From Octopus sinensis (lineage: Eukaryota), in contig NW_021835141.1 in NCBI RefSeq assembly GCF_006345805.1, positions 34,750 through 98,749 of the forward strand: 64,000 bases of DNA, in the 5' to 3' direction. Below, in pieces: positions 53,215-61,850 of this stretch; the first letter of the stretch is position 1; every line of letters begins with the position of its first letter. The position numbers and the translations under genes were made by a program. The notes under the pieces are model-generated. The model had not been told where the DNA came from. It ran no database searches and worked only from the letters and a program-made list of their open reading frames with translations.

Positions 53215-54486
53215 ATGGAAGGTACTGTCGCGCGTAGGGAGAGTGTATCTCCAGTGCCAGTACCAGTAAGGATTCTGTAGTGAGCAGAAGGATATTAGAA
53301 GAGCCAATAAGGAGCTTTGCGGCTGCCGCCGGAGGAAACTCAAGGAAAATTGATACAACCAATTTGAAGGCAAACCGAGAGCTGTTAACAAAAGAAGGGA
53401 CCGAAATAAAGGTGGTCCCTCCTCATAGCATCATTAAAGATGCACTCGAAAGGACTGTAATTTTCAAAACATATAATGTTGAAAAGAAAAAAATTAACTA
53501 TGTCAATGACAGAAGTGAGAAAAATATTTAAGGCCAGGCAATTGGAATAACATCACATTTTGGCCAGAGGAAAAAGATATGCAACTGTTGAAGTGAGGAT
53601 GTCAACAGTGGAACAGGCGCAAAAGTATTCTGTGGAGCCGCTGCGAACGGATGAGGTAGTACTGTTGCCATTTTATATGGGGGGGAGAACCTCCCGAATA
53701 AAGATATAACTGTGTACCACCGGAGGCGGACGCCGAATGGCTAGTAGCGGCAGTACTGTATGACCTAGAGGAAGAAATCACACTGCTTCTTTCTGCGGAA
53801 GTAACAGAAGACAAAGTCTGGCTTGGCCAAACAATAAAAATGCTGATCCAAGCAGAGCCTATGACCCTAGAAAAAATTCCAGAGGTCATAGATACAATGG
53901 GTACGAAGTTAGAAGTCATGGTGGAAGGTAGAAAACCCAGATGTTTTAAATGTGGAAAGAAGGGCCATGTTAGGTCCGAATGCAAGAGTGGTGAAGAAAA
54001 GAAAAAGAGGAGAACAACATTGAAGAAGACTCGGAAGATGAAACTACAGAGAATGGGAAAACAGAAGAAGAAAGTACAGAAGAAGAAAATGAGAGCGGAA
54101 ATAAAGAAGAGGCGGAATGGAAGAGAGCTGGTAGCAAAAGAAATTAAAGAGAAATGTTAATCATTGGCAAAATGCAAACTCAAAGAAGGCATGAAAAAGC
54201 CAAAAATCAAAACAAAAGAAATACGAGAAAAAGAAGTTCTATATATGGCGGTTCGAACCTCAAACTCGAGATTAATGAGTCAAATACAATTTAAAAACTA
54301 AAAAGAACTGGATGCAAAAACGTTAAAGACGGTTTCGAAGTCTACCACGTAGAGAGAACGTCTTACAACGTTCTAGCAAATGACTATCGGAGTGATGTTG
54401 GCTTAATTAAAACGACTCCACGAGCCCGAGAAAAAGAAAAAGAGGCGGACCCACCTCCGCCTTTTAGCGAAGACACAAGAAATTGA
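53215..54486 (+). pseudogene. Tx1/L1 ORF1 (frameshifted)
   Basis: CFKCGKKGHVRSEC CCHC knuckle followed by an acidic/basic tail. Confidence 0.7.
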
Positions 54487-54496
54487 GGTAAGACTT

Positions 54497-57400
54497 ATGG
54501 CAGTTCACGTTGGATGTTTAAATGTGCGTGGCCTGACGGCGGGATGGAAGCAAGGTCGCTTCTTAAACGACGTCATGTCACATAATTTGGATGTCATTGT
54601 TGCTACTGAAACCCGGTTAAAGGGATCAAGAGGACTGCTCCCACTCCTGGATGGATACGAGAAATTTATTTCTCCAGGTCCACCGGCGGATGGGTGGGGG
54701 TGTTGTTGGTCCTACTAAAAAGAAACCGGGTTTCAGAGAAGAAGTTAATTTTTTGTGACCCAGAGGGTAGGCTGGTCGTCTTCGACCTGACTTTAAGTTG
54801 CGGTAAGAAAATCAGACTGGTGGCAATTTACCCCCCTACAATTGTCAGTCTGAGTATTTCCGAGACCTAGAGAAGTTTCTTGGTACGGCGTACCCATTAG
54901 TTTTGTTAGGTGACTTTAATGTTATTCAAGATGCGCGCGTGGATAATGTTGGCTCGAACCCAAATAGAATACCTAATGCCGGTTTCCGGGATCTACTAAG
55001 TCGCTTTCAGCTAGTAGATCCATACAGACTTGAATTCCCGAAAACCCCAATGTGGACATGGTTAAGTGGTGACGGGTCTTTTAAGTCCTATATAGATAGG
55101 ATTCTAATTAGAGAAACAGATAGACCCATAGCTAAGTGTCCACAATTCCACTTGGTCAGCTACAGTGATCATAAATTGGTCACTTGTAAGCTGAACCTAG
55201 ATAAGTTACAGAGTAGAGGATCCGGTTACTAGAAACTCAATAAGTCCCATTTGGCGAACGAAGAGTACAGAAGCCGGATTAAGTTACTGATACAGAGTGC
55301 TTTAACTGGTACCATCATTAATAATAAATGGTGGTACGCCCTCAAAAGAGCCATTAAATTTGAGTCTGTTAGATATAGCATAGGTTTAGTGGCGAGAGAG
55401 CGTAAGAGAGAACTAGAACTGGTTAAGGAATTAGAGGAAGCAGTGTTGACTGGTAGTGCTGCTGAGGCGAAGGCTAAGAGACTGGAATTAAACCAGCACC
55501 TCGAGGCCAAACACAGGGGATGGATTAAGGGGTAGACTTCGTGCAAAGGGAAGTGAGGGGCTCAATGCCGCTGGATGGGCTCGGGTGATGGAAACCCAAT
55601 GTGGAAATAATTCCACAATTCGATCTGTGGAGAACCTACAAGGCGAGATTGTGAACGAACCCGATGAGATGTGTCAGGCTTTTCAGGAGCACTTTGTACA
55701 GCTTTTCGGGAGGGGCAATGGACCGGATGGTAGGTTGGACCTTTCGGACTTCCTTGCCGGGCTGCCGCCTCTCTCGGGGCAGGATGCTGAGTGCTGTGAG
55801 GGTCCGATAACACCTGAGTGTAGGGTAGCTATTATAACGTAAAGCTGGTAGGAGCCGGTGACTTGATGGTTTGCCTTATGAATGTATAAAAGTATGCCAG
55901 ACTTCTTTGGGAAAATTCTGGACAGGGTTTACGCTAACTGCAGCAGAATGGGTCGATTCCCAGATCTGTACGCAGGGGAGTGGTGACTCTGGTCAGGAAG
56001 GACCTAAACAAGGGAGATAAGATAGACAACTTTAGGCCCATCACTCTGTTAAACGCAGAGGTGAAGATTTTGGCCAAGGTACTAGCAAAAAGATTGGGGC
56101 GGGTCGCGAATACTCTGATCGGCAAGGCACAAACCTGTGCCGTCGCCGGCAGAAGCATTCAGGACAATCTCCATCTATACGCTATACCTTAGAAGGGTTT
56201 GGTAGTGATTCTGGCAAAAGCATTCGATAGGGTTGACCATCGATACCTGGTGTCCGTGCTAGCACAGTTCGGGCTGGGTCTTGGCTTCCTTAGGTGGATA
56301 ATCCAATTATACGACAACATCGATTCGATCGTTCGGGTGAACGGATTTTCTTTCTAGGCCGTTCTCTGTTAAGCGCTCGGTTCGCCAAGGATGTCCGCTT
56401 TCGCCACTTTTGTATGTGATGGCTCTAGAGCCGTAACTGCGAAAATTGAGCGGCATCCCGAGGGGCGGCTGTTGGAGAGTCGGTTTCAGCATATGCGGAT
56501 GACATCACCATTTTTGTAACCAAGATGGAACACCTACAGAGGGTAAGTGAAACCATTAAGGTTTACGAGACGGTAGCAGGAGCAAAGATTAACCGGGAAA
56601 AGTCAGTCGGCTTGCAACTCGGCACCTGGAGGAGAAAGTCGATGCCTTTGGATAGCGTCGTGGGACGTTGGACGGAGGGCCCGGTTAGCTGTTAGGGGTA
56701 TGGTTTGGACCAGACCTCCAGGTAGAAAAGAACTGGGCAGAGGTATTGAGCAAGGTGACCTGCATAGTCAAGACCTGGTCTTGGCGGTGGCTATCCTTGA
56801 AAGGGAGGGCGGAGGTATCGCATCGGTCATCATTTACCGCCTAACCGTCGTGCCCTGTCCCGGTTCGTGGTTGAGCAAGCTGGAGAAGCAGATCTTCCGC
56901 TTTTTGTGGAAGGGCACCACTCCTCTAGTGAGGCGTTCTCTCTGTGCTGCCAAAAGCCGTTGAATGGAGGACTGGGGATGCCTTGGCTGTTGATGCGCAA
57001 ACATGCGCTGAGGTTGAGGCATCTCTGGCTACTCCTCAATGGTTAACAGGTGTGGTCTCCGCACGCGAAACGGATGTTTCCCAGGTTCACAAGTTTTAGT
57101 GGACAAGAAAGCTGGTTCCTTCGTAGAACGAGGTTGGGTACATGGTTTACGGAGTGCTGTAAAGCACTCCTACAGTCCATCGCTCGGGTAATGCTAGCGG
57201 TTTTGGTACCACCACATTTTTCTATAGCAGGTTGGTAGAGGCTGGGAACGACGATACCCTAGAGGAAACCCTAGGTCTCGGAGATAACCAGTTAGACAGT
57301 CTGTTCCGAAGGACGTTTGGGCTGGGGTGTTTGGATAATTTCCAAAAGTCCCTGGCCTGGCAATGTTACTGAGGAGCCTTACCCGTTCGGGATAAGCTCG

Positions 57401-57828
57401 CAGGACACGGTCGAACCACCACTGCCGACTGTCCAAGATGCAGACGGGATAGGGAAACTGTCCTGCACGCTATTGTTCAGTGTCCGGAAGTGTCTGAAGT
57501 GTGGGTTTATGCAGAACATCTGCTGTCAGATTCGGGAAGAGTACAGCTGTCGTCTGAGTCAATCGTAAAAATTGACCCGCCGGATTTCCTCACGAAAGAA
57601 GGTAAGCAATGTTTTCTCGCAGTAGTAGCAATAGCGAAAGAGGTGGTATGGAAGTCGCGAATGAAAGGTTGGCGACAGGCACCTTATCTCCGGTCTCGGG
57701 TTGGTGAGATATTTATCTTCCTCCTTAAAAGGAAGGTGGGGCTGGAAAGTAGATGCCTGTCAAAGAAAATGTTCAAAGAAAGATGGTTGCATGTTGCGAG
57801 GATGCTGGGAATGAAAGATTCCTCATGA
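54497..57828 (+). pseudogene. Tx1/L1 ORF2: APE endonuclease, RT, zinc finger (frameshifted)
   Basis: LNVRGL, ETRL, LGDFN, IDRIL, SDHK; [29 protein letters not shown]; CPRC...H...C. Confidence 0.9.
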
Positions 57829-58068
57829 ACATGTCATAAGTCTGCATACAAATGTTTCAGTAGGAGAATGGGGCTCGTGGGGTCGGAGCGTAAGCCATCT
57901 CTCTGCTTCATCTCATCTCACGTGTGTATTTCGTCCTTGTTGTATCTCATTCGATTTCATTCGATTTCATTATATTTGTAAAATTTTAAGAGTCATATAA
58001 TCATTGTGTGTCTGACCCCAATCAGCTGTATTGCCCCCCTCTATGTTTGGGCCCATTTGGCTAATAAA

Positions 58069-58420
58069 GAAATTGGATGTAGAGGGTTTGTTGGACACAG
58101 CGTGAGACGACTGTTGTTATCGCTAGGCCTAACTCATCGTAAAGTCAATACCATCATGACTGATATCCAATCTACAGTGGAGAAGGCTAGCCACTGGATT
58201 TGGTTAAAAAGAGACGATGAGCGATGGCTAAAGTATATTGAGTTCTTCATAACCAGCTGATCTAGCAAGCGGAGCCTCATATCAGTGAGGCATTGATTGC
58301 CGTCGAGAGGTAGGCCCCGAAACGGCGCGCAATCTCTCCTGATGACCCCATACACTTGCTAGCTTCCGGTATACGGAGCTTTTAACTGGTAGCACTTGCA
58401 TGTGCAAGTTGTTTGCAAGA
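58069..58420 (+). mobile_element. HERO-like element right part: ORF end and structured 3' UTR
   Basis: EIGCRGFVG...VEKASHWIWLKR continues the endonuclease broken at 53023; stop at 58260. Confidence 0.85.
58262..58362 (+). ncRNA. Permuted hammerhead-like ribozyme candidate
   Basis: GCCGTC 58299-58304 pairs with GAAACGGC 58319-58326; GAGAG 58305-58309 pairs with CTCTC 58334-58338, followed by CTGATGA; closed by CTAGCAAG/CTTGCTAG. Confidence 0.6.
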
Positions 58421-60098
58421 CATCTAAGACCTTGTGGTAGGGAACCACTGACAAACCGGAAAGACGGTTAGGCATCTTGGAAAGACAAGAGGACTGCTCG
58501 GAAAGACGAGCGGACAATAGGAAAGACTATCGACACCAGGAAAGACTGGTGGAGGCTGCGGACTTACGATCCTCGCCTTTGTTATATATTGTAACAGATA
58601 TGAATGGATATGACTGCCCCACGATCGACCGAGAGGGGAGAATCGAGAATCAATCAAACCGGTCAGCACGGAAATGACCTTGGAAATGAGTGCGGTTATT
58701 CATTCGAACAGCGAACGAAATGCAAACAACTTTGGATGCAAGCTGTGCTGTAGAACCTTTGCAACTGTGAGAGGCTTGAAGATACATCAGGGAAAGACTT
58801 GTGAGAAGAGGACAGAGCAGTGTGGATCGTCAGATCGTAAAACACGTGGCAAATAATCCCCGGACTCAAACCACAGCGGATCGATAAATGCTACAGCAGA
58901 GACATCTTCGCGTGATGAAACTACAATCATAAAACTGGTGTATCGATAATACTACTCAGAGGAAACCGAGGGTTTTGTGGCCTGCTGCTAATGAGAAAGT
59001 GAAATATAAAGAGTTTGAAAACAAGGTTTGTCGGGCTCTTTATAAAATGACAGACTCTACAGTGGAGAAACTGGGCAAATTATCAAGCTCAGTATAGGAT
59101 ATAGGAAAAGATTTATTTGGAATAAAAGAGAATATCCGGCTAGAGAAAGGAAAGTGTGGACCAAGCAGCAGGATCAGAAAAATGCAGCAGTTGAGGAAGG
59201 AAAAGTCCGACTTAAGAAAGCGATGGAGATGTGCTGCACTAGATGAGAAACCTGGCCTTGCGCTACTGTATAACGATTTGAAGAGGAAATGTCGTTATGT
59301 GCAACGACATATCCGCCGATATGAGCGTCGAAAAGAAAGTAAAAGGACTCGGGGTCAGTTTCTGAAGGACCCTTACGGGTTTACTAAGAAGCTATTCACT
59401 GAACCGTAGAGTGGCACTTTATCGTGCACTAAAGAAGAATTGGATGCTCATATCAAGGATACCTACAAGGCAAGATCTTTATGGGAATTCTGTCGAGGAG
59501 AACAGTGGCATATTTACACAAATTACTAATAACAGCCATGGACCACTTCCACATTCCAGACAAAGTGATCAAAATAATGAGGATGTACTATGACAGTTTC
59601 GAAATGAGATTTACGACTGGAAATTTTACAACAAATTGGCACCGATTGGAAGTTGGCATTGCTGCTGGCTGTACGATATCTGTCACGTGGTTTATCTTAG
59701 TCATGGAGTTGATTTTGGAAGGTGTAGATTTTTCGGAACAAATCGCCCATGTACAATTGCCTAAGAAAGCCTTCATGGATGACGTGACACTTCTAGCTAC
59801 AGATAAAAAAACATGCAGAATGCCCTCTTGAGATTAGACGAACTTGTAAGTTGGTCAAGGACGCGATTTAGAGCAAAAAAGTCGCGTAGTCTGACATTTG
59901 TTAAGGGAGTGCAGAAGAAGAAGTTTAAGTTTCGATTCTGAAGAAAGCATTCCAACAGTCAAGGAAGAACCGTCAAGAGCTTGGAACGAGTATACGCTGG
60001 AACATTGTCAGACAGAAGTCGTGGGATTGAAATTATGAAACAGGCCGAGGCTGGGTATCAGCGATTGATAATTCGAAGTTTCCAGGTAAATATAAAAT
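58421..60098 (+). mobile_element. Second HERO-like copy: 5' UTR, N-terminal zinc finger, partial RT; internally deleted and 3'-truncated
   Basis: CKLCCRTFATVRGLKIHQGKTC; WPAANE; FLKDPYGFTKKLF; GIAAGCTIS; KAFMDDVT; KKSRSL. Confidence 0.85.
58434..58551 (+). ncRNA. Array of five G-GAAAGA-C hairpins
   Basis: Invariant loop, five different fully paired stems, 19-21 nt period. Confidence 0.8.
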
Positions 60099-61850
60099 TG
60101 ATGTTTGTGACAGCACATAAGATCTCCTCAGCAGGATCAATGACTGTAACAACACTTGTGACCTGACAGGATGTATGGTGGGTAGCATGGATGTGGTATC
60201 CCTATACCCATCGATTGACGTAGATTTTGCGGTGGAGAAGTGCGTGGAGACGATCAACGAGAGCCAGGTGGAGTTCCGTAATGTCAACACAGAAGAACTG
60301 GGCCTCCTACTTAGACTGACATGTAATAATGAATACTTAGATAAGCATAATCTTAGTAGTTTCTGCCCCAGTCGATGTTTAAGAGGTAGACCGCCCACAA
60401 TTACTTCTATGGCTAGGAAGACACATATAGAAAGGTGACGCGGATGGACCAGAGGCATACGGAGCCCTGCAAATGTCCATCAGGTAAAGAAAATGATCGC
60501 ACATGCACTAGGAGCTAGTATAAGAGTTATCCTAAAAGCCACACGTTTAAGTTTAATAATAAAATATATGCCTAGGACGAGGGGGCAGCCATCGGCGTTA
60601 GTATCGCTGGTGATGGGGCCAACCTTTTCATGGTATGGTGGGACAGAGGCTTAAAGAACGCCTAACACAGAACTCCATACTCGTAAACATGTACTCTCGC
60701 TATGTTGATGATATCAACATAGTGGTAAAGGCACCCCCACAAGAGAGTACTCTTGAAAGAGAAATAGAAACTAATACTATGGAGAGTATCCAGCAAATAC
60801 ATAACTCCATCCTCCAGAGTATTAAGGTTACAATAGACTACCCCACTAAACACCCCAACCATAGACTACCAGTGCTAGACACTGAACTCTGGCTAGAAAT
60901 TGTGAATAATAAAACCCAAATCCTTCATTCATACTATGCCAAACTATGGCCTCAAAATACTTGATCCACCGGAACTCAGCCATTGCGGGCAATGCCAAAT
61001 TCAATTTTTGATGGCACCTCGTCAGAATAATGAGAAATGTGTCACGCATGTGCGAGCCTACAGAGTTAAAGAAACACATACGATACGATTTTCATTCACC
61101 GCATGCAGTTCTCAGGTTACAGCCAGAAAGAAAGGATCAGAGTATACAAAGGAGCTATGAAGAAATTTGATAATATATTATGTAATGATAGGATTGGGAT
61201 TTGCCCACTCTATAGAACAAGTCATGGAACACTATAGAAAGGACAAAAAAGAAAATAGGGAAGGCCAACTCTTGGTATGATAACCATAAATACCAGAGTG
61301 TCATGTTCGTTGACACCACCCCTGGAGGTGAACTGGCGTACCGCTTTAGAAGGACCCTAGACAAACTGAAGCTAAGAATTAACGTTGTTGAAAAGCCAGG
61401 CAACCCTATCAAATCTATAATTGGTAGAACCTATCCTTTTAGTAGAACCCCCAGTACGGATAAGTACTGTACTGTATGTAGATTTAGCCCACAAAAAACT
61501 GTAAAGCCAGGAATGTAGTCTATAGTATAAGATGTATAGAGGGACGATGCAGTAACAAGACGACATACGTAGGGGAAACGGCAAGAAGCATAGGAGAGCG
61601 GGTAAATGGACATTGGAGACAACTCAAGGAGGTAAAAGCTCATCGATTCTGTACCAACACGCCGAACAGAAACACGGGGGATCAATCAATAACATACAAA
61701 TTAAAATATTGTCCACACATAGAACAGATGCAACAATTAGACAAATTACAGGAAGCTACACACATAATAGAAAATAAACGTAGCCTGATAGAAAACTAGA
61801 ATGGAGCACTAACACACACCACAACATGTGACGATAGAGGATCCAGAAAA
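60099..61850 (+). mobile_element. 5'-truncated Penelope-like element (RT plus GIY-YIG endonuclease)
   Basis: GSMDVVSLYPSID, GAAIG, YSRYVDD, LPVLD; NVVYSIRC...YVGETARSIGERVNGH. Confidence 0.85.

Follow-up and report, generated by a model that had tools for sequence, protein, structure and literature searches.

What does a row of hairpins that all carry the same loop do in the leader of a retrotransposon? The question is raised by the plus strand of the window (the whole stretch of 64,000 nucleotides of Octopus sinensis DNA that was analysed), where five hairpins with GAAAGA loops, at 58454-58469, 58475-58490, 58496-58511, 58517-58530, and 58534-58551, and with 5, 5, 5, 4, and 6 perfect stem pairs, respectively, follow a leading hairpin at 58434-58448, all as located by an initial annotation of this DNA. 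GAAAGA occurs at 91 sites on the two strands of the window and is closed by at least three Watson-Crick pairs only at these five. The 118 nt from 58434 to 58551 fold at -40.5 kcal/mol on the plus strand (z -7.06, with 0 of 200 shuffles as low) and at z -5.28 on the minus strand. By sequence, fold, and the census described below, the array proper is a run of five units at 58449..58551, each composed of a G[A/G]C linker and a 4-6 bp hairpin. The linker, which the annotation had noted between the hairpins, precedes each hairpin and belongs to the motif. The stems had been called fully covarying: their outer pairs do differ and still match, but the closing G-C pair (G-GAAAGA-C) is identical in all five.

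That structure has been selected, as the annotation proposed, is borne out at the RNA level by compensatory stems, a sense-strand bias, and conservation between families. Arrays of at least two units are present in 26 of 80 related loci (metagenome contigs from one scan, with proteins 32-71% identical to that of the element); the reverse strand has none, and shuffled loci yield them in 10 of 400 cases. The leading hairpin has a counterpart, CTGG-N4-CCAG, in most array-bearing families. Among 22 loci whose upstream region was read, most of those lacking an array are 5′-truncated, and in L153 the array has decayed. For a census, 69 distinct units from 23 loci and the window were chosen by sequence only, with a pattern requiring G[A/G]C and a loop AG; three loose-rule matches (L115, L166, L172) had been dropped as chance, and L120 was added. 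The consensus over families is (U)G[A/G]C-N1-3-stem-G(A)NAG(A)-stem, with linkers of UGAC (51), UGGC (10), and, by type, G-G-C (13); the loop, invariant among the window's five, differs between families, in 20 variants, with GAAAGA in 25 of the 69 units. Compensatory changes, which the annotation had named as a check, are found throughout: the four loop-proximal pairs hold in 60, 67, 64, and 59 of 69 units, where shuffle means are 42, 31, 41, and 34, and such pairing was never reached in shuffles (0/5000), a test that kinship among families inflates. The second pair is variously A-U (23), G-C (20), U-A (16), and C-G (4), and G-U exceeds A-C by 13 to 1 over three pairs and by 17 to 2 over four; this bias indicates that the sense strand acts as single-stranded RNA. 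A neutral minisatellite, or a series of palindromes at the DNA level, would be in keeping with the period of 19-21 nt and with the simple tandem repeats containing GGAAAGAC that turn up as unpaired pattern matches, but not with differing stems that still pair, strict strand bias, G-U over A-C, or the retention of arrays by families that are 39-58% identical in protein; it is largely refuted by the unit census and the strand test, and its probability is very small.

The array belongs to an element of 3738 nt with a single ORF that includes a reverse transcriptase (RT; RVT_1, E=7e-19 on the element copy L037), C-terminal CCHC and PD..D endonuclease motifs, and an N-terminal C2H2 finger (motifs seen by eye in P0001 and P0002). 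This is the ORF layout of the HERO clade, and, like the annotation, we provisionally class the element as HERO-like; the nearest solved structure to its protein is R2 (E=5e-15). As the annotation had it, the array occupies a 5′ leader position, between the fixed end of the element and its ORF. The RT ORF that it placed 3′ of the array is indeed that of a single-ORF RT element, but in the window (58591..60099, plus strand) it is broken, with the C2H2 finger and part of the RT surviving among stops and frameshifts. This copy keeps only unit positions 1-1042, 1380-1431, and 1600-2185, and is dead, through internal deletion, stops, and truncation at 60099 by another element. The latter is a broken Penelope-like remnant at 60113-61800 (GIY-YIG at E=2e-4, just under the cut-off), and a broken APE-type LINE lies upstream at 53700-57830 (Exo_endo_phos, E=2e-7; zf-RVT, E=4e-7). 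The window copy has multiplied along with its flanks: L001-L014, at G000:C18:3.8-5.2 Mb and on small contigs, share the whole fetched stretch at 95-99%, and the window region belongs to a segmental duplication that is recent and multi-copy. Other loci (L020, L023, L024, L028, L030, L040, L045) are short, internally deleted derivatives that keep the leader and the 3′ end and are possibly non-autonomous.

Ahead of the unit on the plus strand lies a partial copy of the element's own 3′ end (58069..58426; endonuclease tail and 3′ UTR; 93% in BLAST to the 3738-nt unit), and 58000-58257, when translated, corresponds to the C-terminal end of P0001. At 58415..58428 (plus strand), the fixed 3′ end of genomic insertions is seamlessly joined to the unit start, as judged from the 3′ junctions of copies and from contig depth. 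Insertion 3′ ends are fixed at about 58422-58428 and 5′ ends vary; depth is ~100-fold higher to the left of the 58424-58428 junction in 4/4 runs, in contigs that do not resolve ends or circles. Among 34 array-bearing loci, a non-random set taken from BLAST hits in which two share one flank and one value is a deletion artefact, the start lies 5′ of the junction in 30 and 5′ of the predicted ribozyme cut (see below) in 23, and 5′ ends do not pile up at that cut. Such partial-tandem insertions suggest a circular or tandem template. Moreover, the leading hairpin lies 5-7 nt downstream of the insertion end in 4/4 clean cases, drawn from three other families, and 6-12 nt downstream of it in the window's family. 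These end points, and the starts of 30 of the 34 copies, would suit an array read by the element's own protein to mark where reverse transcription begins on a circular or tandem template. Yet two groups of loci (L108/L111/L112 and L172/L175-L177) keep the hammerhead, leader, and upstream partial copies with no array, and the unit is common in RNAs without an RT. Because it occurs in tmRNA, phage leaders, and RNA viruses, as detailed below, we hold it improbable that the array serves the element's own protein as a binding site; binding by the zinc-finger/RT protein and second-strand control, both among the uses proposed by the annotation, are weakened by the same RNAs, where there is no such protein. 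A mark of the reverse-transcription start is better sought in the leading hairpin than in the array.

The ribozyme in question is a rewired hammerhead-like fold on the plus strand at 58269..58349, 85 nt upstream of the array, in which cleavage site, GAAA, and CUGAUGA come in that order and a four-way junction stands for stem II; the cut is predicted after 58304. The window copy is broken and retains the core only, one junction strand being deleted in the alignment. The CUGAnGA, GAAA, and UH core with stems I and III was recovered in 34 of 80 related loci, and the full fold with its four-way junction in 33 of 80 (L099-L178), each against 0 of 80 reverse complements; L176 has two hammerheads 4365 nt apart. 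The order of site, GAAA, and CUGAnGA is that of the type-SGC hammerhead in the available text of Eckert et al. (2023; PMC10085705), from which the octopus-element fold differs by its four-way junction and its want of a direct stem II, the listed sites having 0 direct pairs except for two (1 and 2 pairs). The one file covered of that paper's supplement does not contain GGAAAGAC.

Downstream of the array, alignment and pair counts delimit an anticodon-like stem-loop (58560..58572, plus strand), whose 7-nt loop (58563-58569) has the middle triplet UAC (58565-58567), the predicted partner of a GUA codon that, together with the ACA predicted to be decoded first, occupies 58591..58596 on the same strand. 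The GUA shares the reading frame of the long ORF in copy L036, and UAC:GUA is seen in 35 of 40 matched own-genome loci. Array-bearing families have in common a G-C-rich stem with a 7-nt loop 3′ of the array and a complementary in-frame codon 19-57 nt further on. In a MAFFT alignment of 26 leaders (L107 and L153 left out, loop positions partly hand-placed), the three loop-codon pairs are formed in 97.4% of cells, and both sides change at each of them; sliding the alignment by 1-3 columns leaves 33-47% paired over the whole structure. The combinations of loop triplet and codon are AGC:GCU (17), GGC:GCU (5), AGU:ACU (twice), UGC:GCA, and the UAC:GUA of the window's family, with a wobble-pair mismatch in L110 and L165. 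Flanking pairs mostly fail (10:82 holds in 2/26, 15:77 in 10/26, 16:76 in 12/26, and 11:81 in 17/26), as expected of a true anticodon-codon contact.

When the frame was anchored on peptides, a cognate codon was present in 19 of 23 anchored families against 4.7 expected (4/27 were without an anchor), 7-12 codons, in most cases 8-9, ahead of the first conserved peptide motif, and the codon cognate to Ala(AGC) is gone where the loop triplet is UGC, AGU, or UAC. L107 and L132 came out without a cognate codon; L132 was wrongly anchored and pairs in the 26-leader alignment, and L153 reads UGC:GCA by eye. A second family in the octopus genome, fetched after the prediction had been written, combines an array with a UGC loop and, 19 nt further along, GCA-ACG; it resembles L101 and is a new locus, not a new event. 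The own-genome search for other families returned one with a leader among 25 loci, the rest being of the window's family or 5′-truncated. On an RT tree that kept 32 of 72 aligned rows, the double changes reduce to some four events: in the L101 group, in L153 (by eye), in L124/L127, and in the window's family. On the negative side, the pseudoknot has only three pairs and a spacer of 19-57 nt, and 17 of 26 leaders share AGC:GCU; on the whole we consider it very probable that the loop triplet pairs with the in-frame codon.

The paired codon is followed by ACN in 21 of 26 leaders, by AUG in three, and in one leader each by UCU and CCA. No AUG is conserved at the ORF start: within 25 codons before or 15 after, an in-frame AUG is missing from 14 of the 26 leaders, and in the other 12 there is one nearby at a position that varies. 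The covarying pair offers a candidate start signal, and we think it likely, with less assurance than for the pairing itself, that it sets the start of translation. L108/L112, with neither array nor loop, begin with AUCAUGA and nest among array-bearing families in the RT tree, an association of AUG start and array loss seen in one lineage only. The distant branch of L172/L175-L177 also lacks the array and the loop rule, has no early Met, and is left unexplained by the proposed start model; L172/L175, whose first 50 codons contain no Met, may rely on a different entry site.

Loops that pair with a triplet just before a non-AUG first codon are known from viruses. According to the parts of the literature available to us, domain 3/PKI of type 6 intergenic region (IGR) IRESs is an anticodon-codon mimic in that position (PMC12221177, PMC10275262, PMC10516663), first codons include GCU, ACU/ACC, and UCN, and the type 6b PKI has an extra hairpin (PMC10516663). 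The octopus-type leaders likewise have a loop paired with the in-frame triplet before the first codon (three pairs, about four double changes), no conserved AUG, first codons of the GCU/ACN/UCN kind, a total length of about 140-190 nt, and in many cases an optional hairpin between loop and codon. They differ in their row of 3-5 hairpins, their three (perhaps four) pseudoknot pairs, and their encoding by retrotransposons; no PKII domain with an L1.1 loop, PKIII, or SLIV/SLV was found in them, and the array fills the upstream region. By analogy, the leader would most likely work like a type 6 IRES while falling outside that type for want of PKII/PKIII. An IRES-mining study covers viral genomes, and the string "retrotranspos" is absent from the text of it that was available (PMC12221177); in what could be seen of another paper, such IRESs in APE-type non-LTR elements are a matter of mere speculation (PMC3894237).

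The R2 group offers the other comparison. Its leaders contain a self-cleaving ribozyme and are translated without a required Met (PMC13580325, PMC7650587), and the start position is described as not deducible and the start mechanism as unknown (PMC13580325), as far as the accessible sections of these papers go. The octopus element resembles this group as a restriction-like-endonuclease element with presumably ribozyme-processed RNA and no conserved AUG, and departs from it in having a start predicted by a covarying loop-codon pair and, as its ribozyme, a hammerhead variant near the 3′ end where R2 has an HDV-like 5′-terminal fold. In RNA viruses, cap-independent translation is stimulated when a ribozyme cleaves the RNA, according to the portion available of PMC13725137. 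Of the uses proposed in the annotation, cap-independent translation of a ribozyme-cut RNA is the best supported, by the anticodon-codon covariation beside the array.

Our main reading, to which we assign a probability of roughly 0.5, is that the leader may be an AUG-independent IRES resembling type 6, where the array, whose only link to ribosomes is its position, would help recruit them. The upstream hammerhead would cut the transcript and leave an uncapped or circular RNA, on which cap-dependent initiation is not usable. The loop-codon pseudoknot would sit in the A or P site, like PKI of the dicistrovirus type 6 IRESs, the codon after the paired triplet would be the first decoded, and the 3-5 array hairpins would replace the PKII/PKIII domains by contacting the small ribosomal subunit, directly or through a bound factor. 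We guess that the contact is a conserved ribosomal surface because bacteria and eukaryotes both use the unit, and docking or holding of ribosomes is suggested by the way in which the array abuts the anticodon mimic here as it abuts Shine-Dalgarno sites in bacteria. The recurrence of the unit in tmRNA and ahead of Shine-Dalgarno sites, both places where ribosomes bind, also favours this reading.

The bacterial and viral occurrences come from pattern scans that gave 52 + 108 viral matches and at least 123 genome matches. Of 163 distinct prokaryotic or viral matches listed, 78 are well paired, and a G[A/G]C linker that the pattern did not request precedes the second loop in 72 of these 78 against 11 of 33 unpaired ones among the matches listed. 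The excess of G-U over A-C is 20:4 in viral matches and only 39:21 among the genome matches listed. Among the 123 genome matches listed, 33 have the unit inside an ARAGORN-called tmRNA, 3′ of the tag frame at offsets of 200-240 of about 380 nt, and 14 of these 33 pass the strict pairing rule; where titles are given among the matches listed, the unit-bearing tmRNAs are from Acidimicrobiia/Actinomycetota. The region 3′ of the tag frame is normally taken up by tmRNA pseudoknots 3-4. Acidimicrobiia chromosomal tmRNAs with 3-4 units include L260:588-978, L264:469-851, and others in L210-L332, and two phage tmRNAs (L059, L086) carry units as well.

A Shine-Dalgarno sequence and an ORF directly follow the unit in 18 of the 53 well-paired genome matches listed and in 17 of 42 viral ones, the ORF often being a gene that precedes a phage capsid gene or one whose start, by eye, is signal-peptide-like. 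Phage pre-capsid genes in L333-L440 (e.g., L069:2001-2080, L335, L388) have 2-3 units directly before their Shine-Dalgarno site and begin with N(L/I)xL(F/H), presumably akin to a Prp cleavage site; in L069 a Prp gene is adjacent. Units before signal-peptide-like genes (L213, L248, L249, L252, L267, L276, L278, L306, L307, L317, L320) are from Chloroflexota, Bacillota, and Patescibacteria genomes, and the products are possibly abundant surface proteins. Units in the form UGAC-N-stem-GGAAAGAC-stem were recovered from phages, both in gene leaders and in tRNA clusters; proximity to tRNA genes was noted in 2 of the 53 genome matches listed and 6 of 42 viral ones (phage), and 19 of the 53 and 19 of the 42 have no assigned context. 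Two RNA-virus contigs also have arrays in their 5′ regions: L065 (RdRP_3, E=7e-18) and L097 (RNA helicase, E=1e-25), in which an AUG immediately follows. In the 3.7-kb contigs L353 and L409 the array lies no more than about 25 nt from the 3′ end, and L400 carries one in either a 5′-region or a 3′-terminal position. L353, L400, and L409 are only tentatively RNA viruses because no Pfam match was obtained for L353 and L400; the first ORF of L065 had none either. Initiation is not an obvious use for units beside phage tRNA genes or at the ends of L353/L409, which counts against the array as part of an IRES, and the likeness of eukaryotic and prokaryotic units is possibly due to convergence.

The tRNA-cluster and viral 3′-terminal placements are accounted for if the array is an RNA stabiliser that slows exonucleases on uncapped ends (of hammerhead-cut retrotransposon RNA, viral ends, tRNA precursors, and abundant phage or surface-protein mRNAs) while the anticodon mimic works alone. 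A phage tRNA cluster with two type II hammerheads (L052:1231-1298 and 2126-2193) adds to this, one of them being ~85 nt upstream of an array, a spacing as in the octopus element. Arrays deep inside tmRNA are hard to reconcile with protection of ends, stems are of only 3-6 bp (the L132 array folds weakly, z -1.5), a circular RNA would need no stabiliser, and the array loop and linker have no apparent pseudoknot partner, in contrast to known xrRNAs, which do. On balance we consider stabilisation unlikely, although the least so of the alternatives.

Somewhat less likely still is that the unit is a dock for a non-ribosomal host RNA-binding protein, with a KH, S1, or cold-shock fold as found in bacteria and eukaryotes, and that arrays provide multivalent binding for storage, localisation, or translational control. 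A conserved linker (UGAC or UGGC in most units) and an ..AG.. loop on a variable stem are typical of protein sites, but to our knowledge no non-ribosomal protein family has equal specificity across animals, Actinobacteria, Firmicutes, and Chloroflexota. The preference of the KH protein Bicc1 for YGAC and GACR (in the available text of PMC8249388) favours such a dock, but G-G-C linkers (13/69) lose the GAC, and the adjacency of the array to the anticodon mimic would go unexplained.

Repeated short hairpins with purine-rich loops, as in the array, are also a feature of CsrB/RsmZ (GGA loops), boxB, and MS2 arrays. The present array differs from them in loops without GGA, a conserved 5′ linker, and a spread across domains of life. 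CsrA/RsmA sites have ANGGA in hairpin loops; loops in the 69 units are of the G(A)NAG type, with a GGA start in two. Compared with the phage unit, the retrotransposon form is a tandem array, and the unit is shared besides with chromosomal tmRNA and the UTRs of RNA viruses. Four further candidates were set aside: m6A (DRACH) sites, given the 13 G-G-C linkers and the presence of the unit in bacteria; pairing to the 16S 3′ tail, because the base in the middle of the loop is variable and the unit also occurs in eukaryotes; a bacterial SECIS or read-through signal (UGA-C plus hairpin), on spacing; and the identity of GGAAAGAC with part of 23S rRNA 2054-2068, taken as a coincidence in view of the different pairing register and the absence of the linker spacing. 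That rRNA segment is a TLR13 ligand, according to what is accessible of PMC12887398.

The array is real, under selection, and, within the sources covered below, uncatalogued. Rfam, a check named in the annotation, has no entry for it: 58240-58620 gave three unrelated matches only at E<=10, 12 family loci no match and no IRES at E<=2, 17 viral loci only tmRNA, tRNA, and type II hammerhead, and 17 further loci nothing relevant. Within the open-licence PMC/bioRxiv literature, a scope to which Repbase reports and most subscription papers do not belong, we found neither a description of the array, nor such repeats in tmRNA, nor a PKI-like element in a retrotransposon; a prior description in Repbase or subscription papers is possible.

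Returning to the type-6-like entry site, a stronger version would make it a factorless IRES of a new class, the first in animal genomes, acting on hammerhead-cut, circularised RNA, with the array as a universal ribosome-docking module that would also serve tmRNA, phage and surface-protein leaders, and RNA viruses; this is tentative, and clearly less likely than the main reading. A module common to animal retrotransposons, tmRNA, phages, and RNA viruses, and missing from Rfam, would imply a deeply conserved binding surface or fold, and RNA engineering could make direct use of a compact entry site that needs no AUG and possibly functions on RNA that is uncapped or circular. For the retrotransposons themselves, translation start without Met in the R2 group is described as unsolved (PMC13580325, in the sections available), and the loop-codon rule addresses it: the covariation singles out an exact start codon in this clade and, if true, fixes the N-terminus for genome-writing work.
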